Source of the DNA: an uncultured Oscillospiraceae bacterium
Lineage (GTDB): Bacteria; Bacillota; Clostridia; Saccharofermentanales; UBA5734
Reading direction: 5' to 3'
Assembly: GCA_964654125.1 (NCBI GenBank)
Contig: CAZZGG010000003.1
Location: 1 to 63,246 of the forward strand
Length of the DNA: 63,246 bases
Made by a program: the position numbers and the translations under genes. Position 1 is the first letter of the stretch. Every line of letters starts with the position of its first letter. This document shows, one piece after another, positions 25,790 to 43,058 of the stretch. The notes beneath the pieces are model-generated. The model saw only the letters and a list, made by a program, of their open reading frames with translations. It was not told the DNA's origin and made no database searches.

Positions 25790-25790
25790 G

Positions 25791-28606: not shown

Positions 28607-28618
28607 TATATACCTCAC

Positions 28619-29377
28619 TCAAGGCAGCAGCACATGGGCTTTGCGGGCTGCTTTTTCATATTCTTCCGGCAGGGCTTGTTCACAGACCAGGGCATAGATA
28701 CTGGTCAGCCTGGCAAAGGTGTAGGGCATGCTGCTGCCCAGCTTACTGCTGTCCATCAGGATGGCTGTCTGGCGGGCCTTGCGGATGATCAGTTTTTTCA
28801 ATTCGGCTTCCAGATAGTCACCGCAACTGAAGCCATTGTCTGGTGAAAAGGCACTGGCCGCGATGAAAGCCAGGTCAAGGTTGAGGGTCTTGACATATTC
28901 AACAGCATTAAAGCCGGACAAGGTCAGGGTCTCCCGGTTGAGCTGGCCACCGGTCAGGTTGACCCGGGCGCTGGGGTTTTTGATCAGTTCCAGGGCGATA
29001 TTGGGGGCTGGTGTCAGGATGAACATGCTCTGGTCCGGCAGCTGGCGGGCCAGGCTCATGCAGGTGGTACCGGAGTCTATGTAGATGGAACGGCCCTGGC
29101 TGAGCAGGCTGACGGCCTTTTGCCCGATCAGGTCCTTGGCATCTGCATTGGCGATCTGGCGCTGGGTGTAGGCGGCTTCCTTAATCATGGAAAGGCTGGC
29201 CAGAGATCTGGCTCCACCGCGGATGCGCACAATTTGGCCCTGGCGTTCTAGAAATTCCAGGTCGCGCCGGATTGTCATGCCTGAGACATAATCAAAATGC
29301 TCTTCTAAATCCTTAAATTGGACTTCTCCGCGGGATTGGATATATTGATTGATCGCTTCACGCCTTTTGCTTGTCAT
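28619..29377 (-). CDS. DeoR-family transcriptional regulator
   Basis: N-terminal HTH (RREAINQYIQSRGEVQFKDLEEHFDYVSGMTIRRDLEFLE) plus a DeoR C-terminal sugar-phosphate sensor domain. Confidence 0.85.
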   Translation of the reverse strand: MTSKRREAINQYIQSRGEVQFKDLEEHFDYVSGMTIRRDLEFLERQGQIVRIRGGARSLASLSMIKEAAYTQRQIANADAKDLIGQKAVSLLSQGRSIYIDSGTTCMSLARQLPDQSMFILTPAPNIALELIKNPSARVNLTGGQLNRETLTLSGFNAVEYVKTLNLDLAFIAASAFSPDNGFSCGDYLEAELKKLIIRKARQTAILMDSSKLGSSMPYTFARLTSIYALVCEQALPEEYEKAARKAHVLLP

Positions 29378-29560
29378 TTTCAGCTCCTTATACGCATGAT
29401 AAATGATGTTATATCATGTCATAATGGAATATTATCACAGGCAGCTAATGAAAGCAATAAAGCAAGTGATATCAAGGATTAAAGCAGAAGATGCTTGATT
29501 CAAGGGCGTTTGCAGGAGTTGTTTAAAAATGGTAATTAAGCAACTGTAAAGATAATTAAA

Positions 29561-29576
29561 ATATAACATGTTATAT
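29561..29576. promoter_or_regulatory. perfect 16-bp palindrome ATATAACATGTTATAT, candidate operator
   Basis: Perfect dyad. Its half-site ATGTTATAT recurs at 29406-29414 and, 8 of 9, at 29633-29641 overlapping the -10 element. Confidence 0.5.
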
Positions 29577-29613
29577 TATGAGGAAAACGCTAGTTAAATT
29601 AACACTAGTGCTG

Positions 29614-29642
29614 TTAACAAGCAACATATTTAATGTTATAAT
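29614..29642 (+). promoter_or_regulatory. SigA-type promoter of the nine-gene operon
   Basis: TTAACA (29614-29619), 17 nt, then TGtTATAAT (extended -10, TATAAT at 29637-29642). It lies 68 nt upstream of ATG 29710. Confidence 0.65.
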
Positions 29643-29709: not shown

Positions 29710-30975
29710 ATGAAAACAAAAGCAGTACGTATTTATGGAAAAAATGATCTTCGCTTAGATGAATTTGAATTGCCGGCCATGCAGGATGATGAAATCCTGG
29801 CCTGCATCGTTTCGGACAGCATTTGCATGTCCTCATATAAGGCTGCCATGCAGGGGGCCGATCATAAACGGATTCCCAATGATGTGGCACAAAACCCGAT
29901 TATCATCGGCCACGAATTCTGTGGTGAGATCCTGGAGGTGGGCAGCAAATGGGCGGACCAGTTCAAGCCTGGTGATCGCTTCATCATTCAAACAGCTCTC
30001 AATGACCCAGCCAATGTCTATGCGGCACCGGGCTATTCTTTCCCTTATATTGGCGGCGCTGCCACCCATGTCATCATCCCGGAAGTAGTCATGCGGCAAA
30101 AGTGCCTGCTCCCCTATGAGGGTGAAGCCTTTTACTTTGGTTCCCTGGCTGAACCCATGTCCTGTATAGCAGGCTGCTTCAATGTCAGTTACCACACAAA
30201 ACCGGGCAGTTACGAACATATCATGGGCATCGTGGAAGGCGGCAACATGGCTATCATGGCCGGAGTTGGCCCCATGGGCCTGGGTGCGATTGATTTTGCT
30301 ATCCATAATCCGCGCCGGCCTGGCCTTCTAGTGGTGACAGACATTAACCAGAGCCGCCTAGACAGGGCTGCCCGGCTCTATCCACCCGAAGAAGCAGCAC
30401 GCAATGGTGTCACCTTACACTATCTGAACACAAAGGATCTGGCAGATGTGCCGCAAAAGCTGCTTGAGCTGAGCGGCGGCAAAGGTTATGATGATGTCTT
30501 TGTCTACGCCCCTGTGGCTGCACTGGTTGAACAGGCTGGAGCGGTGCTGGGCTATGATGGCTGCCTTAACTTTTTTGCCGGTCCGACTGACCCGACTTTT
30601 TCCGCACCTTTTAATTTCTATGATGTCCATTATAATAACACTCATGTGGCGGGCAACAGTGGCGGCACAACAGCTGATATGATTGAAGCAGTTGACCTCA
30701 TGACGCGCGGCCTGATCGACCCGTCCTCCATGATCACCCATGTCGGCGGCCTGGACTGTGTGGTCGACACCACTTTGAACCTGCCAGATATACCTGGTGG
30801 CAAAAAGCTGGTCTATACTCAAATCAAAATGCCTTTGATCGCGATTGCTGATTTAGCAAAAATGGGTGAAACCAATCCGGTTTGCCGTGGCCTGGCCGAG
30901 ATAGTGGCTCAAAACAATGGGATTTGGAATGCGGCAGCAGAAAAATACCTGCTTGAGCATGCTGAACCGATCTGA
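29710..30975 (+). CDS. medium-chain Zn-dependent dehydrogenase/reductase, ~420-aa subgroup (L-sorbose-1-phosphate-reductase-like)
   Basis: ATG 29710 lies behind GGGGAGG. Catalytic-Zn ligand context SDSICMS and IIIGHEFCGE. No Cys4 structural-Zn lobe. GVGPMGLG Rossmann motif. The SorE-like assignment is from recalled motifs. Confidence 0.6.
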   Translation: MKTKAVRIYGKNDLRLDEFELPAMQDDEILACIVSDSICMSSYKAAMQGADHKRIPNDVAQNPIIIGHEFCGEILEVGSKWADQFKPGDRFIIQTALNDPANVYAAPGYSFPYIGGAATHVIIPEVVMRQKCLLPYEGEAFYFGSLAEPMSCIAGCFNVSYHTKPGSYEHIMGIVEGGNMAIMAGVGPMGLGAIDFAIHNPRRPGLLVVTDINQSRLDRAARLYPPEEAARNGVTLHYLNTKDLADVPQKLLELSGGKGYDDVFVYAPVAALVEQAGAVLGYDGCLNFFAGPTDPTFSAPFNFYDVHYNNTHVAGNSGGTTADMIEAVDLMTRGLIDPSSMITHVGGLDCVVDTTLNLPDIPGGKKLVYTQIKMPLIAIADLAKMGETNPVCRGLAEIVAQNNGIWNAAAEKYLLEHAEPI

Positions 30976-30993
30976 GCCGGAAGGGGAAGAGCA

Positions 30994-32082
30994 GTGCAAA
31001 CAGAAGATATAAGAAAAATCAGGGGGCTGGCTGCTGAGCTGGCCCCGGCCCTGCGGGCCTTTTTTGCCAGCCGGCGGGTGCTGGTTTCCTTTGCAGCAAA
31101 GGCTGATCCATCAGATGACCTTGTAAAGATCCAGGCTACTGACAAAAAATTAGCCGGACTACCGGCAGATTTTGCAAAAACAGACCTGCCGGCCAGGGTC
31201 CAGCTGGCAGATTTGGGCTGCTTTACAATCCGCCAGATCGACCCGGCCAAGCAAAAGGGCCGGCTGGCTGGCCGGGTCTGTCTGGTCACAGGTGCAGCCC
31301 AGGGCTTTGGCGCCGGCATCGCAGCAGAGCTTGCCGCGGCGGGTGGTCATATCATTATCGCTGACCTTAACCTGCCTCTGGCCGGCCAGGTGGCAGAGGA
31401 GCTCAATCAGACCTATGGTGCCGGAACTGCCCTCGCTTTGCCAGTTGATGTCGGCCAGGAGGATTCAGTCGGCCAGCTTGTCCAGGAGACAGTCCTGGCT
31501 TGGGGCGGGATTGATCTTTTGGTCAGTAATGCCGGTGTGCTGAGAGCGGGCGGACTGGCTGAGATGGACCTGGACTCTTTTGAGTTTGTGACCCGGATTA
31601 ACTATACAGCCTTTTTTCTCATGGCTAAATATGTCGCAGTGCCCATGCGGATCCAGGCCGGTCTGGATCCGGACTACTTTGCTGATATCGTCCAGGTCAA
31701 CTCCAAGTCGGGCCTGGAGGGATCCAACCGCAACTTCGCCTATGCCGGCAGCAAGTTTGGCGGGATCGGCCTGGTGCAGAGCTTTGCCAAGGAATTGGTT
31801 GAAGACCGCATCAAGGTCAATGCTGTCTGCCCCGGCAACTATTATGAAGGCCCCTTGTGGAGCGATCCGGAAAAAGGACTCTTTGTCCAGTATCTGGCGG
31901 CCGGCAAGGTGCCTGGGGCCAGGACAGTAGCTGATGTCTATGAGCATTATGTCGCCAAGGTGCCGCTGCGCCGGGGCTGCTCCCCGGCTGACGTCAGCCG
32001 GGCAATCTTGTATTGTGTGGAACAAATGTATGAAACCGGCCAGGCTATTCCTGTCACCGGTGGACAGAACATGTTGAAATAG
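30994..32082 (+). CDS. short-chain dehydrogenase, sorbitol-6-phosphate-dehydrogenase (SrlD)/RhaW-like, with ~95-aa N-terminal extension
   Basis: TGAAQGFG Rossmann motif starts near residue 98. The stretch NSKSG...YAGSKFGGIGL...KVPLRRGC...TGQAIPVTGGQNM closely parallels E. coli SrlD. Confidence 0.75.
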   Translation: MQTEDIRKIRGLAAELAPALRAFFASRRVLVSFAAKADPSDDLVKIQATDKKLAGLPADFAKTDLPARVQLADLGCFTIRQIDPAKQKGRLAGRVCLVTGAAQGFGAGIAAELAAAGGHIIIADLNLPLAGQVAEELNQTYGAGTALALPVDVGQEDSVGQLVQETVLAWGGIDLLVSNAGVLRAGGLAEMDLDSFEFVTRINYTAFFLMAKYVAVPMRIQAGLDPDYFADIVQVNSKSGLEGSNRNFAYAGSKFGGIGLVQSFAKELVEDRIKVNAVCPGNYYEGPLWSDPEKGLFVQYLAAGKVPGARTVADVYEHYVAKVPLRRGCSPADVSRAILYCVEQMYETGQAIPVTGGQNMLK

Positions 32083-32093
32083 GAGGACAAAGC

Positions 32094-33431
32094 ATGGCAA
32101 CACCTGTCATTATGCCCCGCCAGGGACAATCTGTAGAAAGCTGTATTATTGGTAAATGGCACAAAGAAAAGGGTGATCCGGTCAAGGCTGGAGATATCCT
32201 CTTTACTTATGAGACTGACAAGGCAACCTTTGATGAGGTGGCTAAAGAAGACGGTGTCCTGCTTGACATTTTCTTTTTTGAAGGTGACGATGTGCCGGTT
32301 TTGACTAATGTCTGCGTGATCGGCGAGCCCGGAGAAGACACATCCGCCTACCGGCCAGCTGGAGCTGCCGGAGAACCAGCCCCAGCAGCTGAGCCGCAAA
32401 AACCGGCTCCTGCCGTTCCTGCAGCAGCAACTGAACCGTTAAAAGCAGCGCCAACAGCTACTGTTACTGGGGCAATCAGCCCGCGGGCCAAGCATCTGGC
32501 TGAGAAGAGCGGAGCTGACTTGCGCCTGGTCCAGGCCAGCGGGCCTAAGGGACGTGTGATTGAGCGTGATGTGCAAAGCCTGATTGATGCAGGCCATCTG
32601 CATACAGCGGCAGCAGGCGATTATGCCGCCGGTTTATCCGGAACTGGGATTGGTGGCCGGGTTTCGGTGGCAGACACTCTAACCCAGCCAGAGCAGGAGC
32701 CGCTTGAGGAAGCAACATACACCAGGCCGCACAGCAATATTCGTAAGGTTATCGCCCGGGCCATGCATGCCTCGCTGGCCAACATGGCCCAGCTGACGCT
32801 AAACAGCAGCTTTGATGCAAGTGACATTCTGGCTTTGCGCACCCGCCTGAAAAAAGCGGCTGGCCAGGGTTTAGGTGCAGAACAAGGCTTTATGCTGGCA
32901 GAAACAGTGCCGACCATCAATGATATTTTGCTTTATGCTGTCTCGCGGGTCTTGTCCCGCCATCCAGATTGCAATGCCCATTATGACGCTGAAAAGATGA
33001 CCTATTTCAAGCATGTCAACCTGGGAGTGGCAATCGACACGCCGCGTGGCCTGCTGGTGCCAACCCTCTTCAAAGCTGACACCCTGACACTGGCGGAGAT
33101 CTCGGCAACAGTTAAGGAGCTGGCTGCAGCCAGCCAAAGTGGTACTATCAATCCTGACCTGCTCCAGGGCGGTACATTCACTGTGACCAACCTGGGCACC
33201 TTCGGCGTGGAATCTTTTACACCTGTAATCAACCCGCCGCAGACCTGTATCCTGGGTGTTAACAATATCATCACCAGGGTCAGGGAAACAGAAGGGCAGA
33301 TCAGCAGCTACCCGGCCATGGGTCTTTCTTTGACCTTTGACCACAGGGCGGTGGATGGTGCTCCAGCAGCGCGCCTGCTCAAGGACCTAGTCCAGGTGCT
33401 GGAGAATTTCACGCTGCTGCTGCTGAACTAG
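32094..33431 (+). CDS. dihydrolipoamide acyltransferase (E2) of a 2-oxoacid/acetoin-dehydrogenase-type complex
   Basis: Single lipoyl domain with ETDKA, an Ala/Pro-rich linker, a subunit-binding domain (SPRAKHLAEKSGADL) and a catalytic DHRAVDG motif. Confidence 0.9.
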   Translation: MATPVIMPRQGQSVESCIIGKWHKEKGDPVKAGDILFTYETDKATFDEVAKEDGVLLDIFFFEGDDVPVLTNVCVIGEPGEDTSAYRPAGAAGEPAPAAEPQKPAPAVPAAATEPLKAAPTATVTGAISPRAKHLAEKSGADLRLVQASGPKGRVIERDVQSLIDAGHLHTAAAGDYAAGLSGTGIGGRVSVADTLTQPEQEPLEEATYTRPHSNIRKVIARAMHASLANMAQLTLNSSFDASDILALRTRLKKAAGQGLGAEQGFMLAETVPTINDILLYAVSRVLSRHPDCNAHYDAEKMTYFKHVNLGVAIDTPRGLLVPTLFKADTLTLAEISATVKELAAASQSGTINPDLLQGGTFTVTNLGTFGVESFTPVINPPQTCILGVNNIITRVRETEGQISSYPAMGLSLTFDHRAVDGAPAARLLKDLVQVLENFTLLLLN

Positions 33432-33449
33432 TGCCGGGGAGGAAAGAAT

Positions 33450-34820
33450 ATGTATGATCTGATCGTTTTAGGTGGCGGACCGGCCGGTTACCTGGCCGCC
33501 CAGCGGGCTGCCGAAGCAAAGATGCAAGTGGCCCTGATTGAAAAGAACAAGCTGGGCGGTGTCTGCCTCAATGAAGGCTGCATCCCGTCCAAAACCTTAC
33601 TCAATAGTGCCAAGATCTACCAGCACAGCCTGCAAGGCCAGACCTATGGGGTCAAGGCTGAAAATGTCAGCTATGACCAGTCAGCGGTGATCAAGCGCAA
33701 GAACAAGGTGGTCAAAAAGCTGGTAGCCGGAATCAGGGCCCAGCTCAAGGCGGGACAGGTGGCGATTTTTTCCGCTGAAGGCAGGATCCTGGGCCGCCAG
33801 GACGGCGGTTTTGCTGTCCAGGCCGGCGAGGAGCTCGTCCTGGGCCGCCGCTTGCTCATCGCCACTGGTTCAGATGCCATCATACCGCCTATTCCCGGTG
33901 TCCAGGAAGGCCTGGCTGCCGGCACTGTTTTGACCAGCCGGGAAATCCTTGATCTGGAAGAAATACCAGAAAGCCTGGTCGTGATTGGTGGCGGAGTGAT
34001 CGGGCTGGAGATGGCTGGTTATTTTCAGGCCTGTGGCAGCCAGGTGACCGTGATTGAGATGCTGGACCATATCGCCGGCGGGGCAGACCTGGAACTCAGT
34101 GCTGCCTTGCAAGCCGAATTCACGCGCCAGGGGATCGTATTTCATCTAGGCTGCAAGGTGACAGCAATAGGCCAGGGCCAGGTCAGCTATGAAACTGTAG
34201 CTGGCCAAAAAGAGCAGCTGGCTGCTGCCAAGGTCCTGCTTAGTGTCGGGCGGCGCCCGGCTGTTAAGAACATAGGCCTGGAAAGCCTGGGGGTCTTTGT
34301 CGACAAAGGTCGCATTGTGACAGACCGGCAGGGCTTGACCAATGTGCCGGATGTCTATGCGGCAGGCGATATTAATGGCAGCTGGATGTTGGCTCATGCT
34401 GCCTACCGTGAGGCTGAAGTGGCAGTTAATACTATGTTGGGTCAAAAGGACCTGATGCGTTATCAGGCCATGCCCTCAGTTATCTACACCAACCCGGAGA
34501 TGGCTTTTGTTGGTGAAACAGAAGAAACTTGCCAGGCGGCCGGGATTGCTTACAAAAAGCTTGTGCTGCCGCTTAATTATTCCGGGCGCTACATGGCGGA
34601 AAATGAGGCTGGCAGCGGTTTTATCAAGCTGTTGATCGATCCGGTGCGGCAACGGGTCCTGGGTTGCCATATACTGGGAGCCTACGCCTCGGAGATCATC
34701 CTGGCAGCAGGTTTCATCATTGAAACGGAAATGACCCTGAAAGAGGCCAAGGAACTGATCTTCCCCCATCCGACGGTAGGCGAGATCATCCGGGAGGCCA
34801 TCTTTTCCTATAAAGACTAA
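33450..34820 (+). CDS. lpdA: dihydrolipoyl dehydrogenase (E3)
   Basis: GGGPAGY FAD motif, redox-active GGVCLNEGCIPSK, and a C-terminal HPT-E interface motif. Confidence 0.9.
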   Translation: MYDLIVLGGGPAGYLAAQRAAEAKMQVALIEKNKLGGVCLNEGCIPSKTLLNSAKIYQHSLQGQTYGVKAENVSYDQSAVIKRKNKVVKKLVAGIRAQLKAGQVAIFSAEGRILGRQDGGFAVQAGEELVLGRRLLIATGSDAIIPPIPGVQEGLAAGTVLTSREILDLEEIPESLVVIGGGVIGLEMAGYFQACGSQVTVIEMLDHIAGGADLELSAALQAEFTRQGIVFHLGCKVTAIGQGQVSYETVAGQKEQLAAAKVLLSVGRRPAVKNIGLESLGVFVDKGRIVTDRQGLTNVPDVYAAGDINGSWMLAHAAYREAEVAVNTMLGQKDLMRYQAMPSVIYTNPEMAFVGETEETCQAAGIAYKKLVLPLNYSGRYMAENEAGSGFIKLLIDPVRQRVLGCHILGAYASEIILAAGFIIETEMTLKEAKELIFPHPTVGEIIREAIFSYKD

Positions 34821-34849
34821 AACAAAGCTAAAAAAGCGGAGGTAGCAAA

Positions 34850-37318
34850 ATGGCTAAGCAATTATTCATTAATCCTGAAGAGGTCAGGCAGGCGGGCTGG
34901 ATCAAGTTCAGCAACATTCCTGTCAACCAGTATAACAAGACTGTTGCCGAGGAAAAAGACAGTTTTGGCAAAGAGAATCTCTTGCGTATTTATCACGATA
35001 TGCGCCTGATCCGTGAGTTTGAGGAGATGCTCTATTCAATCAAGACAACCAACGCCTACAATGGCCTGGAGTACAATAATCCCGGGCCGGCCCATCTTTC
35101 CATCGGCCAGGAAGCTGCTGCGGTTGGCCAGGCTTATGTCCTGGATGTAGAGGATGTCATCCTTGGCTCACACAGAAGCCACGGTGAAATATTGGCCAAA
35201 GGCCTTTCCGCCATTGTCAAGCTGCCTGAGCAGGCCCTTTTGGAGATCATGGAAAAATACATGGATGGCCAGATCTGGCGCATTGTCGAAAAAGCCAGCC
35301 AGGGCCGTTCCTTAAAAGAGCAAGCGATTGACTTTTTGACTTATGGTGCCTTGGCTGAGATCTTTGCCAAAAAAACCGGTTTTAACCAAGGCCTGGGTGG
35401 CTCCATGCATGCTTTCTTCCAGCCTTTTGGCATTTATCCCAACAATGCCATCGTAGGCGGTTCAGGTGATATATCTGTCGGTGCAGCCCTTTACAAGAAA
35501 ATCAACCGCAAACCGGGTCTGGTCGTCTGTAATATCGGTGACGGCTCCCTGGGCTGCGGCCCTGTCTGGGAAGGCATGATGCTGGCGGCCATGGATCAGT
35601 ACCGCACCTTGTGGGAAGACGATATGCAAGGCGGCCTGCCTTTGATTTTCAATATCATGAACAACCAGTATGCCATGGGCGGCCAGACCCGGGGTGAGAC
35701 CATGGGTTATGATTTTGTAGCCAGGATTGGGGCCGGGATCAACCAGGATCAGCTTCATGCTGAAAGAGTCGATGGCTATAATCCTTTAGCTGTTATTGAT
35801 GCCTTCCAACGCAAGAAAGCTGTCCTGGCAGAAAAACGCGGACCTGTCCTGCTTGACACCCTGACCTATCGTTATGCCGGCCATTCACCCTCGGACGCTG
35901 ACTCTTATCGCTCTGCTGAAGAAAAAGAACTCTGGCAGGAGCATGATTCGATCGCCTTTTTCCGCAAGGAGCTGGTTGCTGCCGGTGTGGCAGATGATAC
36001 TGTTTTCCAGGAACTGGATGAGCAGATAGTCGCCACAGTCAGCCGGGCAGTCAAGCTGGCCATTGATCCTGTCATTTCACCCCGTATGGATCTGACCCAG
36101 GAACCGGCCGCTATAGAAAAATTGATGTATTCCAACCAGCAGCAGGAAAAGATGGACAACAGGCCGGTCGAGGTGCTGCTGCCCAAGGCAGAGAATCCCC
36201 GCCTGCAGCAGATTGCCAGGAAAGTTCGTTTTGCCTTTGATGAGCAGGGTAAAGCTGTTTCGAAAAACAGGGTCTACCAGCTGCGTGACGGGCTCTTTGA
36301 AGCCATCCTGGATAAATTCTATGAAGACCCGACCCTGATTGCCTATGGCGAGGAGAATCGTGACTGGGGCGGAGCTTTTGCTGTCTACCGCGGTCTGACT
36401 GAAGCTTTGCCTTACCACCGCCTCTTTAATGCACCGATCTCCGAAGGTGCAATTGTCGGTTCGGCTGTCGGTTATGCCATGAGTGGCGGCCGGGCCCTGG
36501 TTGAACTGATGTACTGTGACTTTTTGGGCCGGGCCGGTGACGAGGTCTTTAACCAGCTGCCGAAATGGCAGGCCATGTCAGCGGGTGTTTTGAAAATGCC
36601 AGTTGTGGTACGTGTTTCTGTTGGCTCAAAATATGGTGCCCAGCACTCCCAGGACTGGACAGCGCTTTGTACCCACATACCGGGCCTTAAGGTGGTTTTC
36701 CCGGCTACACCCTATGATGCCAAAGGCCTGATGGCAGCGGCATTAAACGGTACCGACCCGGTGATCTTTTTTGAGAGTCAGCGTATTTACGATATTGGAG
36801 AGATGTTCCACGAGGGCGGCGTGCCCACTCAGCCCTACCAGATTGAGCTGGGTGAGCCGGATATTAAAAGACAGGGTAAGGATCTGACCATTCTGACTAT
36901 TGGTGCGACCTTGTACCGGGCCCTGGAGGCCGCCGAGCTCTTGGCAGGCCATGGCATTGAGGCTGAAGTGATTGACGCCCGCACCCTGGTCCCCTTTAAT
37001 TATGATCTTGTTTGTGAATCCGTGCGTAAGACCGGTAAGGTGATAGTGGCAGGCGATGCCTGTGAGCGCGGCTCCTACCTGAGTGAGCTGGCCCGTAATA
37101 TTAATGATTTATGCTTTGACGATCTTGATGCACCGGCTATTGTCCTGGGTTCGCGCAACTGGATCACACCCGCTTTTGAACTGGAGGAACATTTCTTCCC
37201 GCAGCCGGACTGGTTTGTTGATGTTTTTCATGAAAGGATACAGCCAATTGCAGGTTACAGCGCTAAACACAACTTCACCGATGTGGAGCTGATGCGCCGT
37301 CACAAGTTCGGGGTTTAA
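34850..37318 (+). CDS. fused E1 alpha-beta thiamine-diphosphate-dependent dehydrogenase component
   Basis: 822 aa. The N-terminal half has the alpha-type ThDP motif GDG...NNQYAM. The C-terminal half is beta-type (transketolase-like Pyr and C-terminal domains). Confidence 0.85.
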   Translation: MAKQLFINPEEVRQAGWIKFSNIPVNQYNKTVAEEKDSFGKENLLRIYHDMRLIREFEEMLYSIKTTNAYNGLEYNNPGPAHLSIGQEAAAVGQAYVLDVEDVILGSHRSHGEILAKGLSAIVKLPEQALLEIMEKYMDGQIWRIVEKASQGRSLKEQAIDFLTYGALAEIFAKKTGFNQGLGGSMHAFFQPFGIYPNNAIVGGSGDISVGAALYKKINRKPGLVVCNIGDGSLGCGPVWEGMMLAAMDQYRTLWEDDMQGGLPLIFNIMNNQYAMGGQTRGETMGYDFVARIGAGINQDQLHAERVDGYNPLAVIDAFQRKKAVLAEKRGPVLLDTLTYRYAGHSPSDADSYRSAEEKELWQEHDSIAFFRKELVAAGVADDTVFQELDEQIVATVSRAVKLAIDPVISPRMDLTQEPAAIEKLMYSNQQQEKMDNRPVEVLLPKAENPRLQQIARKVRFAFDEQGKAVSKNRVYQLRDGLFEAILDKFYEDPTLIAYGEENRDWGGAFAVYRGLTEALPYHRLFNAPISEGAIVGSAVGYAMSGGRALVELMYCDFLGRAGDEVFNQLPKWQAMSAGVLKMPVVVRVSVGSKYGAQHSQDWTALCTHIPGLKVVFPATPYDAKGLMAAALNGTDPVIFFESQRIYDIGEMFHEGGVPTQPYQIELGEPDIKRQGKDLTILTIGATLYRALEAAELLAGHGIEAEVIDARTLVPFNYDLVCESVRKTGKVIVAGDACERGSYLSELARNINDLCFDDLDAPAIVLGSRNWITPAFELEEHFFPQPDWFVDVFHERIQPIAGYSAKHNFTDVELMRRHKFGV

Positions 37319-37356
37319 GCTTCCATGGTACAATGGAAAAAAACAGGAGATCTGCC

Positions 37357-38646
37357 ATGCGCCAATTAGAACTGGAGCAGCTGATTGACAAGCTCAATCA
37401 TCCCAATAAAAAAGAACGTCTGGTCGCCCTGCGCGATCTGCGTCAGCAAGAGACATCCCTGCCGCCCGGCAGGGATGTCAACAATCATATCCACACCTTT
37501 TATTCATTTTCACCCTATTCACCGACCAAGGCTGTCTATATGGCAGCCCGGGCCGGTTTGGCAACTGCTGGTATCATGGACCATGATACCGTTGCCGGGA
37601 TCAGGGAGTTTCGTGCAGCCGGCCATATCTGGGGTCTGCCCACCACCGGCGGCGCAGAGTGCCGAGCTTCTTTTGCTGCAACACCCCTGGCAGGCAGAAG
37701 GATAAACAATCCCGATCAGGATGATCTGGCCTATGTTGCCCTGCACGGCATACCTGACAGCCAGGTTGAGGCAGTGGCGGAGTTTTTCCAGCCCATCCAG
37801 CTAGCCCGGACCCGGCGCAACCGCCGCATGACCAGGCGCCTGAATGGCCTGCTGGCACCTTTGGCGATCGAGCTGGATTATGCTGCAGATATCCTGCCCT
37901 TGTCCCAGGCTCATGACCAGGGCCAGGTGACAGAGCGCCATCTGCTTTATGCAGCTGCCCTGCAGCTGGAGCAAAAATTCGGGGCTGGCCAGGAACTGAT
38001 TGGTTTTTTGCAAGACGGGCTGAAACTGGCCTTAAGCAGCAAGGTAAAGGACCAGTTGCAAGACCGGCAAAATCCCTATCTGGCTTATGACCTACTGGGC
38101 CTGCTCAAGGGTGAGCTGGGCAGCAGCTTCTATTTGCCAGCCAATGAGGAAGAATGTCCGCCGATTGACGAACTGGCTGAATTTGCCAAAAACAATGGTA
38201 TCATTTTGGCCTATCCTTATCTGGGTGATGTGACGGATTCAGTCACTGGTGACAAAAAGGCGCAAGCCTTTGAAGACAGCTATCTGCCTGAACATTTTAC
38301 TTTATTAAAGCAACTGGGCTTTAACGCCATCACCTACATGCCTTCGCGCAATACCCGTGCCCAGCTGCTGCGTCTGCGTCAGCTGTGCCTGGACCACGGC
38401 TTTTTCCAGATCAGCGGGGAAGATATAAATCAGCCGCGCCAGGCCTTTGTCTGTCAAGCTATGCGGGATCCGCTTTTTGCTAATCTGTATGATGCGGCCT
38501 GGGCCCTGATCGGCCATGAGCTGCTGGCAGGCCAGGACCTGGAGCAGGGTATGTTTTCTAAGGCTAATGCTGAGAAGATGCCGGATCTGACGGAACGGAT
38601 CAATTACTACAAAAATCAGGCCTTATCTGCACATGGGCAGAGTTAA
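37357..38646 (+). CDS. PHP-domain phosphoesterase
   Basis: NNHIHTFYS (HxH) and GIMDHDT motifs of the PHP fold. ATG 37357 lies 6 nt after AGGAGA and is preferred over ATG 37333. Confidence 0.65.
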   Translation: MRQLELEQLIDKLNHPNKKERLVALRDLRQQETSLPPGRDVNNHIHTFYSFSPYSPTKAVYMAARAGLATAGIMDHDTVAGIREFRAAGHIWGLPTTGGAECRASFAATPLAGRRINNPDQDDLAYVALHGIPDSQVEAVAEFFQPIQLARTRRNRRMTRRLNGLLAPLAIELDYAADILPLSQAHDQGQVTERHLLYAAALQLEQKFGAGQELIGFLQDGLKLALSSKVKDQLQDRQNPYLAYDLLGLLKGELGSSFYLPANEEECPPIDELAEFAKNNGIILAYPYLGDVTDSVTGDKKAQAFEDSYLPEHFTLLKQLGFNAITYMPSRNTRAQLLRLRQLCLDHGFFQISGEDINQPRQAFVCQAMRDPLFANLYDAAWALIGHELLAGQDLEQGMFSKANAEKMPDLTERINYYKNQALSAHGQS

Positions 38647-38660
38647 AAAGGAGGAAGATT

Positions 38661-39947
38661 ATGATTAACCAGGAGATTATCCAACAAGCCTACAGTGCTG
38701 CTAAAGCAATCTATGCCAGATACGGCCTGGACACTGATGCCATCTTGCAGCAACTAGCAAAGATCGAAGTTTCCATGAACTGCTGGCAGGGCGATGACGT
38801 GACCGGTCTGGAAAATACTGCCGGCGGCGTCTCCGGGGGTATCATGGCAACCGGCCAGTACCCTGGCAAAGCCCGCACCGGAGATGAGCTGCGCGCTGAC
38901 CTGGATCTGGCCATGAGCCTGATTCCCGGCCGGCAAAGAGTTAATCTGCATGCCAGCTATGCTGAGTTAGCTGGCGAAACAGTAGACCGGGACGCCTATG
39001 ATGTGCGTCATTTTGCCGCCTGGCTGGACTGGGCCCGCGAGCGTGACCTGGGCCTGGACTTTAACCCAACCTGCTTTGGCCATCCCCTGGCTGCAGATAA
39101 CCTGACCCTGGCTCATCCAGATGAGAAAACCCGCCGTTTCTGGATTAATCACTGTAAGGCCAGCCGCAAGATAGCGGCAGCTATTGGTAAAGAGCTGGGC
39201 AAGCCGGTTGTCAATAATATCTGGGTGCCAGACGGCATGAAGGACATGCCGGCAGACCGGACATACTACCGCGCCCTCTTGCGTGACTCTCTGGATGAGA
39301 TCCTGGCTGAGAACCATCCGGACCAGCAGTTGCTTGACGCTGTGGAATGCAAGCTGTTCGGGGTGGGTGTGGAAAGCTACACTGTTGGTTCACACGAGTT
39401 CTATATGGAATATGTTAGCCATGCTAAAAGCAGCGGCAAGGCCAATCTGATGCTGACTCTGGATATGGGCCATTTCCATCCGACTGAGACCATTGCTGAT
39501 AAGATCTCCACCTTGCTGCTTTTTCATGACAAGCTGCTCATTCATGTCAGCCGGGCAGTCAAATGGGACAGTGACCACGTTGTGGTCACTGATGACAATG
39601 TTCAGGATGTCATGCGTGAGATCAAGCGGGCTGACGGCTTTGGCCGGGTCTTTTTGGCTACAGATTTCTTTGACGGCAGCATCAACCGGGTTGCTGCCTG
39701 GGTGATTGGTATCCGGGCTACGCAAAAAGCAATTCTGGCTGCCTTGCTGGAACCGACCAGCATGCTCAAGCAGGTGGAAAAAGACGGCAAGTACACAGAC
39801 CGGCTGGTCCTGATGGAAGAAGCCCGGTCTTTGCCTTGGCCGGCTGTCTGGGATAAATTCTGCCTAGATCAGGGAGTTCCGATCGGTTCTGACTGGTTGC
39901 CTGTGATCCACGACTATGAAAAGAATGTGCTCAGCCAACGGGTCTGA
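38661..39947 (+). CDS. rhaA: L-rhamnose isomerase
   Basis: Collinear similarity to E. coli RhaA over the whole length (SMNCWQGDDV, YPGKART, LDFNPTCF, HCKASR, NIWVPDGMKD, GHFHPTE, HVSR-VKWDSDHVV). Confidence 0.9.
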   Translation: MINQEIIQQAYSAAKAIYARYGLDTDAILQQLAKIEVSMNCWQGDDVTGLENTAGGVSGGIMATGQYPGKARTGDELRADLDLAMSLIPGRQRVNLHASYAELAGETVDRDAYDVRHFAAWLDWARERDLGLDFNPTCFGHPLAADNLTLAHPDEKTRRFWINHCKASRKIAAAIGKELGKPVVNNIWVPDGMKDMPADRTYYRALLRDSLDEILAENHPDQQLLDAVECKLFGVGVESYTVGSHEFYMEYVSHAKSSGKANLMLTLDMGHFHPTETIADKISTLLLFHDKLLIHVSRAVKWDSDHVVVTDDNVQDVMREIKRADGFGRVFLATDFFDGSINRVAAWVIGIRATQKAILAALLEPTSMLKQVEKDGKYTDRLVLMEEARSLPWPAVWDKFCLDQGVPIGSDWLPVIHDYEKNVLSQRV

Positions 39948-39967
39948 CCGATTTAGCAGAGGTGCTT

Positions 39968-41083
39968 ATGCAAAAGAATAAGTTTTTCGAAGACAATCAG
40001 CCGATCCTAACTGACTTTGTGCAGCTTTCGCAAACTGCTGGCGCTCGCTCAGATTATGTCCAAGGTGGTGGTGGCAACACTTCCTGTAAACTGGATGACC
40101 AGCTTATGGCCATCAAAGCGTCCGGCTACCGCCTGGACCAGATCAGACCGGACCAGGCTTATGCTGTCTTGGACTACCAGCTGCTGCGGCGCTTTTATGC
40201 TGAGCCACCTGTTGGTCTGGCGGATCTGGAGGCGGCAGGTTCTGCCCAAGCCAGCCAAGCCAGCAGGACAATTGCCGGCCTGGACCAGCTGCGTCCTTCG
40301 GTTGAAGCTGGTTTTCATGCTCTGCTGGACACTTTTGTCCTGCACACCCATTCTGTCTACGCCAACCTGGCTGCCTGTTCCGCCGATGGTGAGCAGGTGG
40401 CTGCCCGGGCCTTGGCCGGTATTGGAGCAGAGTTTGTTTTCATACCTTATATCAATCCCGGCGCCCAGCTGACCTTGGCCATCCAGACAGCTCTGCAGCA
40501 AAAGGAAGCTGAAACAGGGCGCCGGCCGCAGCTTTTAATTTTGCAAAATCATGGTTTTATTGTGACCGGGCCAGACGCTGCCAGCTGCCTGCAGCTGCAT
40601 GAAGCAGCCAACCAGCAGCTGGCGGCAGCCTTTGCTGTCTCCACAGCAGACTGGCCAGCAACTGCAGTTGAGCCTCATGCTGATATTGCCGGCCTTTTCG
40701 GATCGGCAACCCCATGGCTGGCGGACAGGCTAAAGGGACTGGCAGATCTGGACCTTTTCATCAAACAGCCACTTTATCCGGACCAGATGGTTTTTCTGGA
40801 CGGTAAAATCGCCCTGGCCAGCCCGGCAGAAGCAGCAGATCCAGAAGCGTTTTTCCAGGCCAGGCCGGAGGTTTGTCTGATTTTGCCAAAAACCGGCCAA
40901 GTTTTTTACAAATGCAGTTATAATGAAGCCAGGACCATTGAACAGACTTTATGTGCGGTCTTGTTTATTAACAGCGTGATCCAGGCCTCCGGTGCAAGAG
41001 TGATCAATATGAGCCAGGCGGGCCAGGATTTTATCAGCGGCTGGGAAAGTGAGCAATACCGCAAGAAAATTGCTGAAAAATGA
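39968..41083 (+). CDS. class II aldolase/adducin-fold protein resembling the N-terminal (RhaE) half of bifunctional rhamnulose-1-phosphate aldolase/dehydrogenase
   Basis: GGGGNTSCK...IKASGYRL and PSVEAGFHALL...LHTHS motifs parallel the YuxG/RhaEW N-domain. No fused SDR domain. ATG 39968 or GTG 39962. Confidence 0.65.
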   Translation: MQKNKFFEDNQPILTDFVQLSQTAGARSDYVQGGGGNTSCKLDDQLMAIKASGYRLDQIRPDQAYAVLDYQLLRRFYAEPPVGLADLEAAGSAQASQASRTIAGLDQLRPSVEAGFHALLDTFVLHTHSVYANLAACSADGEQVAARALAGIGAEFVFIPYINPGAQLTLAIQTALQQKEAETGRRPQLLILQNHGFIVTGPDAASCLQLHEAANQQLAAAFAVSTADWPATAVEPHADIAGLFGSATPWLADRLKGLADLDLFIKQPLYPDQMVFLDGKIALASPAEAADPEAFFQARPEVCLILPKTGQVFYKCSYNEARTIEQTLCAVLFINSVIQASGARVINMSQAGQDFISGWESEQYRKKIAEK

Positions 41084-41115
41084 TTGTTTGCCAGCAGTAG
41101 AAAAGGAGACCAGGA

Positions 41116-42597
41116 ATGTCTTTAGCCAAGCAGTTGATCGCTTTTGATTTTGGTGCATCCAGCGGCCGGGCCATGCTGGGTAGTTTTGATGGTGAGCGGA
41201 TTAAGCTGACCGAAATTCATCGCTTCCCCAATGATCCGGTCCAGGTGGGGGACACACTTTATTGGGACCTGCTGCGTCTATTTCACGAAGTCAAACAGGG
41301 CCTGATCAAAGCCAAGGCCTATGGCAGAATTGACAGCATCGCCATTGACACCTGGGGCGTTGACTTCGGCCTTTTAGATCAAGCCGGCCGGCTTTTGGAA
41401 AACCCGGTCCATTATCGTGATAACAGGACCGAAGGTATCATGGATGAAGTCTTCCAGCTGATCCCCAAAGCTGAGCTTTACCAGCGCACCGGGACCCAGT
41501 TTTTGCATTTCAACACCCTCTATCAGCTTTATTCATTGAAAAAACAGCGGCCTGAACTGCTGGAACAGGCAGCCTGCCTGCTCCAGACACCTGACCTTTT
41601 CTTGTACTTACTGACTGGGCGGCGTCAGGCTGAGTTCACCATTGCTTCCACCAGCCAGATGATCAACCCTTATAGCAGTGACTGGGATTGGGAATTGCTG
41701 GAGCGGCTGGACTTGCCCGCTCGGCTGCTTTGTCCGGTGGTTTATCCGGGCCAGCCAGCAGCACCCCTGGCGCCGGCTATTTGTGCTGAGCTGGGCCTGG
41801 AGCCAATCCCTGTGATGGTTGCTGCCTCGCACGACACGGCTTCTGCTGTTGTTGCTGTGCCGGCAACTGAAGCTGACTTCATCTATATCAGCAGCGGCAC
41901 CTGGTCTTTGATGGGGATTGAGAGTCCCAGCCCCCTGATCAATGACCAGACCTATAGCTTTAACTTCACCAATGAAGGCGGCTATAATAAGACAACCCGC
42001 TTCTTGAAAAATATCATGGGCCTGTGGCTGATCCAGGAATCAAGGCGCCAGTGGATGCGCGAGGGTGCCACGGTGAGTTATGCCGACTTAGAGCGCGAAG
42101 CCCTGGCATGTGCGCCTTTTGTCAGCTTGATCGATCCAGATGAACCAGAGCTAGGCTTTCCTGGTGATATGCCGGCGAAGATCCGTCAGCTCTGCCAGGC
42201 AACTGGCCAGCCAGTGCCCGAGACCAGAGGTGAGGTGGTGCGCTGTATTTATGAAAGCCTGGCCCTTAAATACCAGGTGACCAAACAGCAGATAGAGCAG
42301 GTCACCGGCAGGCAATATCATTATCTGCATGTTGTTGGCGGCGGTACTAAAGATGGACTTTTATCACAATTTACTGCCAATGCCACTGGCAGCCGGGTCA
42401 TAGCTGGTCCGATTGAGGCAACAGCCCTGGGTAATATGGCAGTCCAACTGCTGGCGCATGGCACCATCAAAGACCTGGCTGCAGCCCGCAGCCTGATTGC
42501 TAATTCTTTTGAGCTGAAAAGCTACGAACCGGCAGATCAGGCCAGCTGGCAGGCTGCTTTGCAACGCTATCGCCAGCTCTTTCCAGATCTGAAATGA
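41116..42597 (+). CDS. rhaB: rhamnulokinase
   Basis: Collinear similarity to E. coli RhaB (DFGASSGR, IDTWGVDF, YRD-RT, FNTLYQL, SHDTASAV, SSGTWSLMG, NEGG, LKNIMGLWL, VGGG). Confidence 0.9.
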   Translation: MSLAKQLIAFDFGASSGRAMLGSFDGERIKLTEIHRFPNDPVQVGDTLYWDLLRLFHEVKQGLIKAKAYGRIDSIAIDTWGVDFGLLDQAGRLLENPVHYRDNRTEGIMDEVFQLIPKAELYQRTGTQFLHFNTLYQLYSLKKQRPELLEQAACLLQTPDLFLYLLTGRRQAEFTIASTSQMINPYSSDWDWELLERLDLPARLLCPVVYPGQPAAPLAPAICAELGLEPIPVMVAASHDTASAVVAVPATEADFIYISSGTWSLMGIESPSPLINDQTYSFNFTNEGGYNKTTRFLKNIMGLWLIQESRRQWMREGATVSYADLEREALACAPFVSLIDPDEPELGFPGDMPAKIRQLCQATGQPVPETRGEVVRCIYESLALKYQVTKQQIEQVTGRQYHYLHVVGGGTKDGLLSQFTANATGSRVIAGPIEATALGNMAVQLLAHGTIKDLAAARSLIANSFELKSYEPADQASWQAALQRYRQLFPDLK

Positions 42598-42621
42598 TCT
42601 AAAAAACCCGCTTGATAAAAA

Positions 42622-42650
42622 ATACCGGCGGGGGGGACCGCCGGTATTTT
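42622..42650 (+). terminator. rho-independent terminator of the rhaB operon
   Basis: 10-bp GC-rich stem ATACCGGCGG/CCGCCGGTAT with a 6-nt loop, followed by TTTTAT. Confidence 0.85.
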
Positions 42651-42782: not shown

Positions 42783-43043
42783 ATGAAATTAGAAGGAAAC
42801 ACATTTTTGGCCAACTTACTGGTTAAAAGCGCCACTGTTGTACTGGATAATCCGGAGCAGCGTTTCAGCAAACAGCTGGATTTATGCCTGCTTGAACTGT
42901 GTCGCCAGCTCCAGGTGCCCCTGCCGCTCTGGCTGGAGAAAAACACACGGGAGTTTGCCCGTTTTCACCAAACAATTTTTTTTGCTGAACAATTTACTGA
43001 GCCAGTCAGCTTTGAACGGCTGCAAATTCGCTGGTTGGAGTAA
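42783..43043 (+). CDS. small hypothetical protein (86 aa)
   Basis: ORF preceded by GAGGAG. No family recognised. Immediately upstream of mazG. Confidence 0.4.
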   Translation: MKLEGNTFLANLLVKSATVVLDNPEQRFSKQLDLCLLELCRQLQVPLPLWLEKNTREFARFHQTIFFAEQFTEPVSFERLQIRWLE

Positions 43044-43058
43044 GAAAGAGGACTAAAT

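Follow-up and report, generated by a model that had tools for sequence, protein, structure and literature searches.

Why should an operon for L-rhamnose activation also encode the components of a lipoyl-dependent dehydrogenase complex? The question is raised by nine co-directional genes (g1–g9) at positions 29710–42597 of a 63,246-nucleotide (nt) stretch of contig CAZZGG010000003.1 from an uncultured Oscillospiraceae bacterium (hereafter the window, to whose full length all coordinates refer; L-numbers such as L001 denote related loci labelled in this analysis). Genes for an L-rhamnose isomerase and a rhamnulokinase-like kinase stand here beside genes for two putative sugar-phosphate oxidoreductases, a PHP-fold protein, a class II aldolase-fold protein and the E1, E2 and E3 components of a complex that uses thiamine diphosphate (ThDP) and lipoamide. 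We propose, tentatively and at somewhat less than even confidence, that the locus specifies a second, oxidative route for L-rhamnose (and for L-fucose where the isomerase is FucI), in which a deoxy-ketose phosphate is cleaved by a dedicated lipoyl complex. An initial annotation of the locus had outlined such a scheme, and we infer that it is the most coherent reading, being the only one to use the SorE-like medium-chain dehydrogenase/reductase (MDR), the SrlD-like short-chain dehydrogenase/reductase (SDR) and the acetoin-type complex in keeping with the roles of their families.

Gene Content and Organization of the Operon

The genes of the operon are as follows.

29710–30975, plus strand: g1, zinc-dependent MDR of the SorE/YggP family, 421 residues, candidate 6-deoxy-ketose-1-phosphate reductase (sequence identity)
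30994–32082, plus strand: g2, SrlD/RhaW-like SDR, 362 residues, with an N-terminal extension of about 90 residues (NCBIfam, sequence identity)
32094–33431, plus strand: g3, E2 dihydrolipoyl acyltransferase with lipoyl, E3-binding and catalytic domains (Pfam)
33450–34820, plus strand: g4, E3 dihydrolipoyl dehydrogenase (TIGR01350, 462 bits, cutoff 409)
34850–37318, plus strand: g5, fused ThDP-dependent E1 alpha-beta protein, 822 residues, of a distinct clade (E1_dh, Transket_pyr and Transketolase_C)
37333–38646, plus strand: g6, predicted PHP-fold phosphoesterase, 429–437 residues, with a helical insertion of about 150 residues (predicted model, fold search)
38661–39947, plus strand: g7, L-rhamnose isomerase RhaA (NF002203, 647 bits, cutoff 572)
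39962–41083, plus strand: g8, RhaE-like class II aldolase-fold protein, 373 residues (Aldolase_II, 68.5 bits)
41116–42597, plus strand: g9, RhaB-like FGGY kinase, a rhamnulokinase or possibly a fuculokinase (TIGR02627, 503.6 bits, cutoff 528)

All nine open reading frames (ORFs) were confirmed at these coordinates, and searches with family models and by sequence similarity, joined for PHP by a predicted structure, uphold their assignment as MDR, SDR, E2, E3, fused E1, PHP, RhaA, aldolase-fold and RhaB-like proteins. Their close packing is likewise borne out: the intergenic gaps, from g1 to g9, measure 18, 11, 18, 29, 14, 14, 14 and 32 nt, a range of 11–32 nt, one of the 14-nt gaps growing to 38 nt if g6 starts at the ATG of its database entry. 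Upstream of the operon, and outside the stretch covered by the initial annotation, two further genes form a divergent unit that faces it. The elements that frame and may control the operon are as follows.

27578–28618, minus strand: lipoate-protein ligase LplA, second gene of the divergent unit (Pfam LplA-B_cat, 197 bits, and Lip_prot_lig_C)
28619–29377, minus strand: DeoR-family regulator with HTH_DeoR and a DeoRC sugar-phosphate sensor domain (Pfam)
29561–29580, no strand: candidate operator, the perfect palindrome TATAACATGTTATA between the divergent promoters (reading of the sequence)
29614–29642, plus strand: sigma-70-type promoter, TTAACA-17-TATAAT with an extended -10 TG (11 of 12 matches)
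42619–42650, plus strand: intrinsic terminator, a 13-bp G+C-rich stem preceded by an A-run and followed by a U-run (folding, shuffled sequences)

The strong promoter reported earlier was recovered as the best of 21 promoter-like sites in 15.5 kb; it ends 68 nt before the first ATG (29710), which is preceded by a GGGGAGG ribosome-binding site. The strong terminator 3' of the operon also withstood analysis: absent from the output of our pattern scan, it was seen on reading the sequence 3' of g9, and its hairpin (dG -33.4 kcal/mol) is far more stable than shuffled sequences (z = -5.97). Because the DeoR and LplA genes diverge from the same promoter region, the lipoyl complex appears to be a dedicated, regulated part of this unit; LplA occupies the equivalent position at L001, L004, L009 and L010. 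The half-site ATGTTATA, repeated three times in all, recurs outside the palindrome at 29406–29413 (within 29399–29418) and at 29633–29640, where it overlaps the -10 element. At 10 of the 37 related loci compared, TGTTATA lies 5' of the MDR gene (background, about 0.05 per 300 nt), and equal half-sites lie inside the site predicted 5' of sorE in Caldicellulosiruptor bescii. We regard the TATAACATGTTATA and ATGTTATA sites as suggestive of a DeoR operator and no more, the TGTTATA enrichment being modest.

A Sugar-Phosphate Redox Pair Behind a Rhamnose-Activating Pair

The first two steps of the proposed route are shown by homology: RhaA (g7), which scores above its curated cutoff, would form L-rhamnulose, and the RhaB-like kinase (g9), which falls just below its own, would form the 1-phosphate. 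Kinases that score at the same level as g9 adjoin FucI at L055 and L074.

The MDR is a genuine member of the SorE/YggP family by full-length similarity (52% identity to Escherichia coli SorE over all 421 residues, E = 4e-160; 53% to E. coli YggP, also over the full length), with a GHE motif and ADH_N and ADH_zinc_N domains, and the activity predicted for it is reduction of a ketose-1-phosphate at C2. It is 60–76% identical to the MDRs of related clusters, and its relatives on plasmids of cultured bacteria are sorE and yggP genes only. Both SorE and YggP are encoded in operons of the sugar phosphotransferase system (PTS); PTS genes were found neither in the window nor in any related locus, where an FGGY kinase supplies the phosphate instead. 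In E. coli 266917_2 (L088, 1354–5467), yggP lies between cmtAB (a cryptic mannitol-type PTS) and a gene annotated as a class II fructose-bisphosphatase, a YggP-phosphatase neighborhood that parallels the association of MDR and PHP genes in the cluster.

The description of g1 and g2 as a SorE/SrlD-like pair stands, the SDR being SrlD/RhaW-like. The best model for g2 is the sorbitol-6-phosphate dehydrogenase model NF009050, at 213 bits against a cutoff of 307, whereas short SDRs in the same niche at L021 and L037 pass that cutoff (375 and 346 bits). E. coli SrlD is 35% identical to g2, and the SDR encoded at the sor locus of that species only 28%; where sister clusters have a fused aldolase-SDR protein, its SDR half reaches about 60%, and g2 scores 147.7 bits against the C-terminal (SDR) half of the bifunctional model TIGR02632. 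Its N-terminal extension (residues 1–90, 30994–31260) had no match among the families or anywhere in the fused aldolase-SDR proteins. SDR genes of comparable length (366–371 residues) occur at L001, L004, L005, L012 and L094, and the extension may be a docking segment that takes the place of a covalent link to the aldolase-fold protein.

A Dedicated Lipoyl Complex With a Distinct Fused E1

ThDP-dependent E1 alpha and beta, lipoyl E2 and E3 are encoded together, so that an acetoin-dehydrogenase-type gene set is present, and the signature motifs are in place: TYETDKA (lipoyl-lysine ETDKA) and FDHRAVDG (DHRxxDG) in g3, together with a CLNEGC redox disulfide and a GDG...NN ThDP motif in the complex proteins. 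Their scores do not mark them as a pyruvate dehydrogenase (PDH). The best curated matches of E1 and E2 are PDH models, all below cutoff (TIGR03182, 199 against 394 bits; NF006667, 233 against 321; TIGR01349, 270 against 445); g3 lies under every curated cutoff for the E2 of PDH or 2-oxoglutarate dehydrogenase, and only E3 passes, against a generic model. The alpha half of g5 diverges from solved E1s far more than its beta half does (88 bits, against human PDHA, and 196 bits, respectively), with PDH and branched-chain dehydrogenase beta subunits equally distant in a PDB that holds no acetoin dehydrogenase (Aco) E1, NCBIfam likewise holding no Aco-specific model; the beta half also weakly matches models of 1-deoxy-D-xylulose-5-phosphate synthase (DXS). 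The acetoin and butanediol genes acoX, acoR and budC were found in none of about 160 related loci.

The fused E1 defines a clade of its own. A tblastn search of plasmids returned full-length fused E1s with 53–55% identity in Rhizobium, Agrobacterium and Pleomorphomonas, ordinary two-gene E1s reaching at most 36%. The neighbors of these Rhizobiales E1s include a small lipoyl-carrier protein (78 residues) and an alpha/beta-hydrolase-fold protein, which we read as a split AcoC-type acetyltransferase, and a SorC-type sugar-phosphate regulator. Rhizobium johnstonii 3841 pRL8 (L090, 10830–17649) adds a PfkB kinase, a xylose-isomerase-like TIM-barrel enzyme, a ribose-type ABC transporter and an RbsD/FucU mutarotase; Agrobacterium pAt15955 (L091) has an XylB-like kinase, a mannitol-dehydrogenase-family enzyme, a polyol-type ABC transporter and LipA; and Pleomorphomonas pSM30-1 (L092) carries an XylB-like kinase in divergent orientation. 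No aldolase, lactate enzyme or pyruvate enzyme was found among the neighbors in these plasmid clusters. Because such neighborhoods combine sugar kinases with the absence of those enzymes, the E1 clade probably acts on a phosphorylated, sugar-derived ketone, and the clusters themselves look like a separate, undescribed pathway by which rhizosphere bacteria would break down a deoxy-ketose or deoxy-polyol.

We therefore reject a housekeeping PDH as the identity of the complex, on the grounds of its sub-cutoff scores, its distinct E1 clade (with the fall in identity from 55% to at most 36%), its own regulator (DeoR or GntR) and lipoylation genes (LplA, or LipA and LipB) in the cluster, the sugar-related contexts in Rhizobiales and the use of pyruvate:ferredoxin oxidoreductase (PFOR) by Caldicellulosiruptor.

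The Gene Combination Is Conserved in Shuffled Order

Gene neighborhoods were compared in two censuses. The first comprised 80 genome loci around homologues of g6, scored with the window proteins and by de novo clustering of ORFs, and counts refer to the 38 of these with at least 8 kb on each side; because a census centered on g6 is biased toward PHP, a second took E1 genes of metagenome contigs as its center and counted the 28 loci flanked by 6 kb or more on either side. Around PHP, SDR genes occur in 30 of the 38 loci, E1 and E2 in 24 each, MDR in 23, DeoR in 22 and the aldolase-fold gene in 16; around E1, E2 accompanies 27 of the 28, PHP-like and SDR genes 24 each, MDR 19 and E3 13, and 13 of those 24 SDRs are 650–720-residue fusions with an aldolase-fold domain. 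The core is accordingly E1 and E2 (with or without E3), a PHP-like protein, an SDR (with an aldolase-fold domain) and a SorE-like MDR, and the sugar-activating genes vary: the module pairs with RhaA and a RhaB-like kinase, or with FucI (1121 bits against a cutoff of 775) and a kinase of the same type. Lipoylation genes lie within the clusters as LplA in ten loci, LipA in seven and LipB in six (the latter two identified by reading sequences).

The complete layout of the window (lplA and deoR facing MDR, SDR, E2, E3, E1, PHP, RhaA, aldolase-fold protein and RhaB) recurs in Clostridia metagenome-assembled genomes (L001, L004 and L009), and at least five other gene orders or orientations exist. 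Lentisphaerota loci (L005, L012 and L019) hold DeoR, MDR, SDR, E2, E3, E1, PHP and the aldolase-fold protein and are without RhaA and RhaB; Limnochordia and other Bacillota show an SDR gene divergent from MDR, LipB, LipA, E2, E3, E1 and PHP; and contigs from Kiritimatiellia and some Lentisphaerales (L002 and L013–L015) have the PHP and aldolase-fold pair only. The commonest layout places a divergent GntR gene before E2, E3 where present, E1, a bracketed insert (HAD, FucA-like aldolase, HAD, aldo-keto reductase), a second type of PHP protein, an aldolase-SDR fusion and MDR. The insert of two HAD phosphatases, a short FucA-like aldolase and an aldo-keto reductase, seen between E1 and this second type of PHP gene at L115, L131, L139, L142, L151 and L168, could be a conventional aldolase and lactaldehyde-reductase branch within the same operon; an extra conventional FucA-like aldolase is found in nine E1-centered loci and in C. 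bescii.

The combination is thus strongly conserved in shuffled order in two phyla, Bacillota and Lentisphaerota, which answers the neighborhood check proposed with the initial annotation, and its core is shared by hundreds of anaerobes. Relatives number at least 572 in genomes and at least 586 in metagenomes, the MDR and PHP families each hold at least about 8000 sequences (7998 for PHP), and the closest relative of g6 among GTDB representatives is 64% identical. Candidate additional pathway genes (transketolase, RpiB, a tetrose-phosphate isomerase) were sought near the clusters and rejected, the recurrent neighbors proving to be housekeeping genes (Asn/Asp-tRNA synthetase-like, topoisomerase, thioesterase, MltG and methyltransferase genes, with FbaA in three loci only).

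The PHP-Fold and Aldolase-Fold Proteins

Two core proteins sit less easily in the scheme. A Pfam search with g6 returned no match, and its membership is weak by sequence; its predicted model, which is confident (pLDDT 91.8), confirms a PHP phosphoesterase fold. Foldseek matches it to 3e0f, 3o0f, 9etk and 2yb1 (E = 1e-11 to 3e-9; target-normalized TM-score 0.69–0.75), the closest solved folds being the TrpH/YciV-type PHP phosphoesterases BAD_1165, RNase AM and the pAp phosphatase Cv1693, and the candidate metal ligands H52, H54, D83, H84, E109, H138, H203, E363, D364 and H395 do not vary among 17 homologues drawn from three phyla. Searches with g6 by tblastn missed most E1-centered loci, which had made PHP look like a dispensable accessory; this was ruled out when ORF clustering revealed, in 38 loci, a divergent second subfamily (PHP2, about 412 residues) that is 24% identical to g6 over nearly its whole length and scores 32 bits against the PHP Pfam cutoff of 26.4. 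PHP is a core member of the cluster because PHP2 stands where g6 searches had found nothing, and the PHP-like gene directly adjoins the SDR gene in 42 of 48 loci.

No PHP homologues were found on plasmids of cultured bacteria. A 440-residue gene that adjoins MDR in a Kiritimatiellia contig was considered as a PHP gene and rejected, having neither PHP similarity nor a Pfam domain. In some Clostridia, g6-type PHP genes stand alone in housekeeping contexts (L028, L033, L050, L051, L066 and L067; L045, L049 and L056), some beside genes read as MltG-like and O-methyltransferase genes and others behind PfkA and LplA, with the rest of the cluster not found within 10 kb; the function of PHP may be broader than a deoxy-sugar pathway.

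The aldolase-fold protein g8 keeps the FucA-type zinc-binding histidine triad and catalytic glutamate motifs in its sequence: RPSVE114AGFH, H128-x-H130 and NH197G are unchanged across six homologues from the clusters, the histidine positions align with E. coli FucA, and the glutamate motif was matched by eye to PSSEWRFH, MAFFT having misplaced it. It matches only the N-terminal half of bifunctional aldolase/SDR models and is 27% identical, in a full-length alignment, to the N-terminal half of the fused proteins of sister clusters. We considered g8 and g2, which are two genes 7.9 kb apart, as a simple split RhaEW. The homology is real, the scores lie far under the RhaEW cutoff (TIGR02632, 568 bits; g8 43.5, g2 147.7 and a fused relative at L059 261 bits) and true SrlD equivalogs replace g2 elsewhere; we retain the idea as a rival explanation only.

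A tandem class II aldolase-fold protein of 428–432 residues occurs at L006, L016, L036, L082, L122, L130, L137, L152, L153, L173 and L175. Its best NCBIfam match, below threshold, is 3-oxo-tetronate 4-phosphate decarboxylase (163 bits against 250), which hints at release of dihydroxyacetone phosphate (DHAP) from an oxidized C4 phosphate.

A Proposed Oxidative Route

We hypothesize that the SorE-family MDR would reduce the C2 carbonyl of a 6-deoxy-L-ketose-1-phosphate and that the SrlD/RhaW-like SDR would then oxidize the C5 carbinol beside the methyl group, yielding a 1-deoxy-2-ketohexose-6-phosphate, an acetoin-like methyl ketone. The ThDP/lipoyl complex, lipoylated by the adjacent LplA, would cleave this ketone to acetyl-CoA, NADH and a tetrose-4-phosphate, and DeoR would sense a sugar phosphate. 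C5 of the original sugar would become the ketone and C4 the aldehyde carbon; rhamnulose-1-phosphate and fuculose-1-phosphate share their configuration at C3 and C5. Because they differ only at C4, both sugars would give the same C4 product, and one module could therefore serve either isomerase.

The stereochemistry of that product brings in the remaining proteins. By derivation, the facial selectivity of SorE (L-sorbose-1-phosphate to D-glucitol-6-phosphate) would give D-threose-4-phosphate, not erythrose-4-phosphate. The aldolase-fold protein might correct this by an AraD-type epimerization at C4 of the 1-deoxy-ketose-6-phosphate, leading to D-erythrose-4-phosphate; or it might cleave the ketose-1-phosphate and recondense DHAP and L-lactaldehyde to 6-deoxy-L-sorbose-1-phosphate (the 6-deoxy analogue of the SorE substrate), which would pass through 1-deoxy-D-glucitol-6-phosphate to 1-deoxy-D-fructose-6-phosphate and so likewise give D-erythrose-4-phosphate; or it might supply a conventional branch to DHAP and lactaldehyde. 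The PHP phosphoesterase would act as a core partner of the SDR. A condensation of the tetrose phosphate with DHAP by the aldolase-fold protein, followed by a PHP bisphosphatase, was considered and fails on stereochemistry; equally speculatively, the two could form an MtnB/MtnC-like dehydratase-phosphatase pair, or achieve an OtnC-like release of DHAP from an oxidized C4 phosphate. The whole route would run beside a propanediol-forming aldolase branch and be favored at low hydrogen pressure.

A Rhamnose-Induced Counterpart in Caldicellulosiruptor

A full-text literature search returned no account that assigns a function to the cluster. The association of its genes was noticed previously in Caldicellulosiruptor and never explained. 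For C. bescii, Rodionov et al. (2021; PMC8579813) list Athe_0695 as FucA, Athe_0696 as a novel predicted rhamnulose-1-phosphate aldolase, Athe_0697 as hypothetical, Athe_0698 as SrlD (51% identical to E. coli SrlD), Athe_0699 as SorE (54% to Klebsiella SorE) and Athe_0702–0704 as E2, E3 and E1 (33–42% identical to the Aco proteins AcoC, AcoL and AcoB), with LipB, LipA, RhaR2 (DeoR family, the counterpart of the window DeoR) and RhaA in the same cluster; SorE and SrlD carry the label "Sorbose?", and the three-subunit dehydrogenase is suggested to act on L-lactaldehyde. The initial annotation was right that a lipoyl complex features in none of the rhamnose pathways described so far, with the qualification that this study had already tied the complex to rhamnose catabolism.

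In Caldicellulosiruptor saccharolyticus, Csac_0865–0876 are highly upregulated on rhamnose and their presence tracks growth on this sugar, the role of the remaining genes being called unclear (Bielen et al. 2013; PMC4187192). Carere et al. (2012; PMC3561251) note that Caldicellulosiruptor uses PFOR and is not known to have PDH activity. We count it in favor of the oxidative route that in Caldicellulosiruptor the cluster is rhamnose-induced and pyruvate is processed by PFOR (PMC4187192; PMC3561251).

Weighing the Oxidative Route Against Its Rivals

Conservation, the SorE-like MDR and the dedicated complex argue for the scheme, and several points weigh against it. We know of no enzyme activity for any cluster-specific protein, nor of an entry into central metabolism for D-threose-4-phosphate. 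g2 itself scores below the cutoff of its best model, that of SrlD. The proposed route has no step for the PHP-like protein and needs no phosphatase, yet this protein belongs to the core; the aldolase-fold domain, homologous to RhaE, is fused to the SDR in the commonest architecture. RhaEW itself converts rhamnulose-1-phosphate to DHAP and L-lactate in vitro and has been validated in vivo (PMC3870299). As a main route the scheme also conflicts with the fermentation of rhamnose by C. saccharolyticus to 1,2-propanediol, acetate, H2 and CO2 at 1:1:1:1 (PMC4187192): because propanediol appears at 1:1, C4–C6 do not become acetyl-CoA and conventional cleavage carries the flux in this organism in batch culture.

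A simpler reading is a conventional, linear alternative. It holds that g8 is the aldolase and g2 the lactaldehyde dehydrogenase of a split RhaEW, forming DHAP and L-lactate, that lactate is oxidized to pyruvate by the MDR or by a lactate dehydrogenase encoded elsewhere, and that the complex is an NAD-linked PDH. The two proteins do match the two halves of bifunctional models, fused forms occupy the same cluster position, consecutive steps would explain the fusion of aldolase and SDR, and the validated precedent of RhaEW and the PDH models as best curated matches of E1 and E2 fit this view. The missed RhaEW cutoff and the distance of E1 and E2 from the PDH cutoffs count against it, as do the Rhizobiales E1 contexts, which follow neither lactate nor pyruvate logic; a lactate dehydrogenase of the SorE family would be unprecedented, sister clusters use true SrlD equivalogs, some clusters add a FucA-like aldolase, and the PHP protein is left without a role. 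Because PHP is core, the aldolase-fold protein is homologous to RhaE and propanediol is formed at 1:1, this alternative stays alive; we consider it unlikely and rank it below the oxidative route.

Following the suggestion of Rodionov et al. (2021), the complex might instead act on L-lactaldehyde or a C3 derivative, its acyl-CoA product being acetyl-CoA plus a C1 unit, or lactoyl-CoA. Rhamnose and fucose catabolism both yield L-lactaldehyde, and either isomerase can accompany the module; moreover, Caldicellulosiruptor makes 1,2-propanediol without FucO or AldA, so that the cluster MDR or SDR could be the missing lactaldehyde reductase. ThDP-dependent cleavage of hydroxyacetone or methylglyoxal, however, would free formaldehyde or formate, and the clusters hold no C1-handling gene; the Rhizobiales clusters have no aldolase, and a 1:1 yield of propanediol leaves no C3 flux for the complex. 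We judge this improbable, and equally so its corollary that the MDR and SDR interconvert lactaldehyde, 1,2-propanediol, hydroxyacetone and methylglyoxal, given that SorE and SrlD homologues at 51–54% identity are expected to bind phosphorylated substrates of hexose size. That the operon is merely a mosaic of unrelated rhamnose, sorbose/sorbitol-type and acetoin dehydrogenase modules strikes us as scarcely credible: each module does resemble a known independent system, and the SorE and SrlD genes of C. bescii were labelled "Sorbose?", but the genes share one promoter and one terminator across gaps of 11–32 nt, the core recurs in shuffled order and under different regulators (DeoR or GntR) across two phyla, in dozens of genomes, and the recurring clusters contain neither a sorbose PTS nor acetoin or butanediol genes.

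Broader Implications

Pectin, ulvan, fucoidan and mucin are rich in rhamnose or fucose. On the current view, anaerobes either excrete the methyl-bearing half of these sugars as 1,2-propanediol or depend on B12-dependent microcompartments to use it. The oxidative route, if true, would allow full, B12-independent use of deoxy sugars at an estimated yield of about 3.3 ATP per rhamnose against 2, and would matter most at low hydrogen because more reducing equivalents (NADH and reduced ferredoxin) are made. More tentatively still, the clusters may reflect a widespread, B12-independent complete oxidation of rhamnose and fucose via a lipoyl complex in anaerobic glycan degraders (Bacillota, Lentisphaerota and carriers of the GntR-type cluster), with the fused-E1 clade acting as a general 1-deoxy-ketose-phosphate lyase in Rhizobiales and new PHP-like and RhaE-like steps setting the stereochemistry or fate of the C4 phosphate.

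A route through a lipoyl complex would alter how carbon, ATP and hydrogen are budgeted in gut, rumen, sediment and digester communities. It would also account for the retention, in strict anaerobes that rely on PFOR, of an NAD-linked "PDH-like" complex and of lipoylation genes dedicated to it. No other 2-oxoacid-dehydrogenase-like complex is known to use a sugar phosphate, which would be a new substrate class for the 2-oxoacid/acetoin dehydrogenase superfamily, and several thousand genes misnamed "L-sorbose 1-phosphate reductase", "pyruvate dehydrogenase" or "PHP domain protein" would be re-annotated. C. bescii, which carries the cluster, is genetically tractable.

Genomic Surroundings of the Operon

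Upstream of the operon (16944–27577) lie a xylose-isomerase-like TIM-barrel protein, sulfatases at 18678–20060 and 23023–24516, two GFO/IDH/MocA oxidoreductases, an AraC regulator and a CUT1 ABC binding protein with two permeases, a gene content of the type used for sulfated glycans; this region could supply the deoxy sugar (e.g., from rhamnan sulfate or fucoidan) and the transporter missing from the operon. Farther upstream, 10354–13826 encodes DUF2961, Amidohydro_2 and an APH-type phosphotransferase behind a second CUT1 ABC system and a histidine kinase, a glycan-utilization unit. Directly after the operon (42783–43904), an 86-residue ORF without a Pfam match precedes MazG; the same pair follows at L001 and L004 and is probably synteny of related genomes, unrelated to the pathway. 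The region 47309–62798 holds the housekeeping genes DnaX, RecR, formate-tetrahydrofolate ligase, YidC, MnmE and MnmG, typical of an origin-proximal location.

Comparison With Known Systems

The closest counterpart is the Caldicellulosiruptor cluster (Csac_0865–0876; Athe_0695–0706), whose published gene content corresponds: FucA-like and RhaE-like aldolases, SDR, MDR, LipB, LipA, E2, E3, E1, DeoR and RhaA. Its order, with SDR divergent from MDR, LipB, LipA, E2, E3 and E1, is also found at L031, L037, L040 and L053; the window differs in gene order, in having LplA instead of LipA and LipB, and in carrying RhaB within the operon. Canonical rhaBAD and fucPIKA systems likewise use RhaA (FucI in sister clusters) and a RhaB-type kinase to make a ketose-1-phosphate, whereas the window operon has no RhaD or FucA equivalog and no FucO- or AldA-type enzyme, and holds six further genes without a counterpart. 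RhaEW (YuxG) combines a class II aldolase-fold domain with a SrlD-like SDR domain, as do the fused forms in the cluster position; in the window the two are separate genes with five between them, always accompanied by MDR, PHP and the lipoyl complex, which are absent from RhaEW organisms.

The redox pair recalls enterobacterial SorE and SorD/SrlD, in that an MDR 52% identical to SorE and an SrlD-type SDR would shift a carbonyl from one end of the sugar to the other. The window, unlike the sor operon, has no sorbose PTS, and its SDR is RhaW-like; because the presumed substrate lacks a C6 hydroxyl, the product would be a methyl ketone, not fructose-6-phosphate. For such a ketone the acetoin dehydrogenase AcoABCL of Clostridium magnum, Pelobacter carbinolicus, Bacillus subtilis and Cupriavidus necator, likewise composed of a ThDP E1, lipoyl E2 and E3, offers the chemical precedent: it cleaves CH3-CO-CHOH-R to acetyl-CoA and an aldehyde, and it works in strict anaerobes. 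The window E1, in contrast, is one fused polypeptide of a separate clade found in sugar operons, and a sugar phosphate would be a new class of substrate. DXS provides the analogy in reverse, its ThDP chemistry joining an acetyl unit to a phosphorylated aldose by way of a 1-deoxy-2-ketose phosphate; that reaction is synthetic, starts from pyruvate and has no lipoyl partner, whereas the reaction proposed for the window is an oxidative cleavage.

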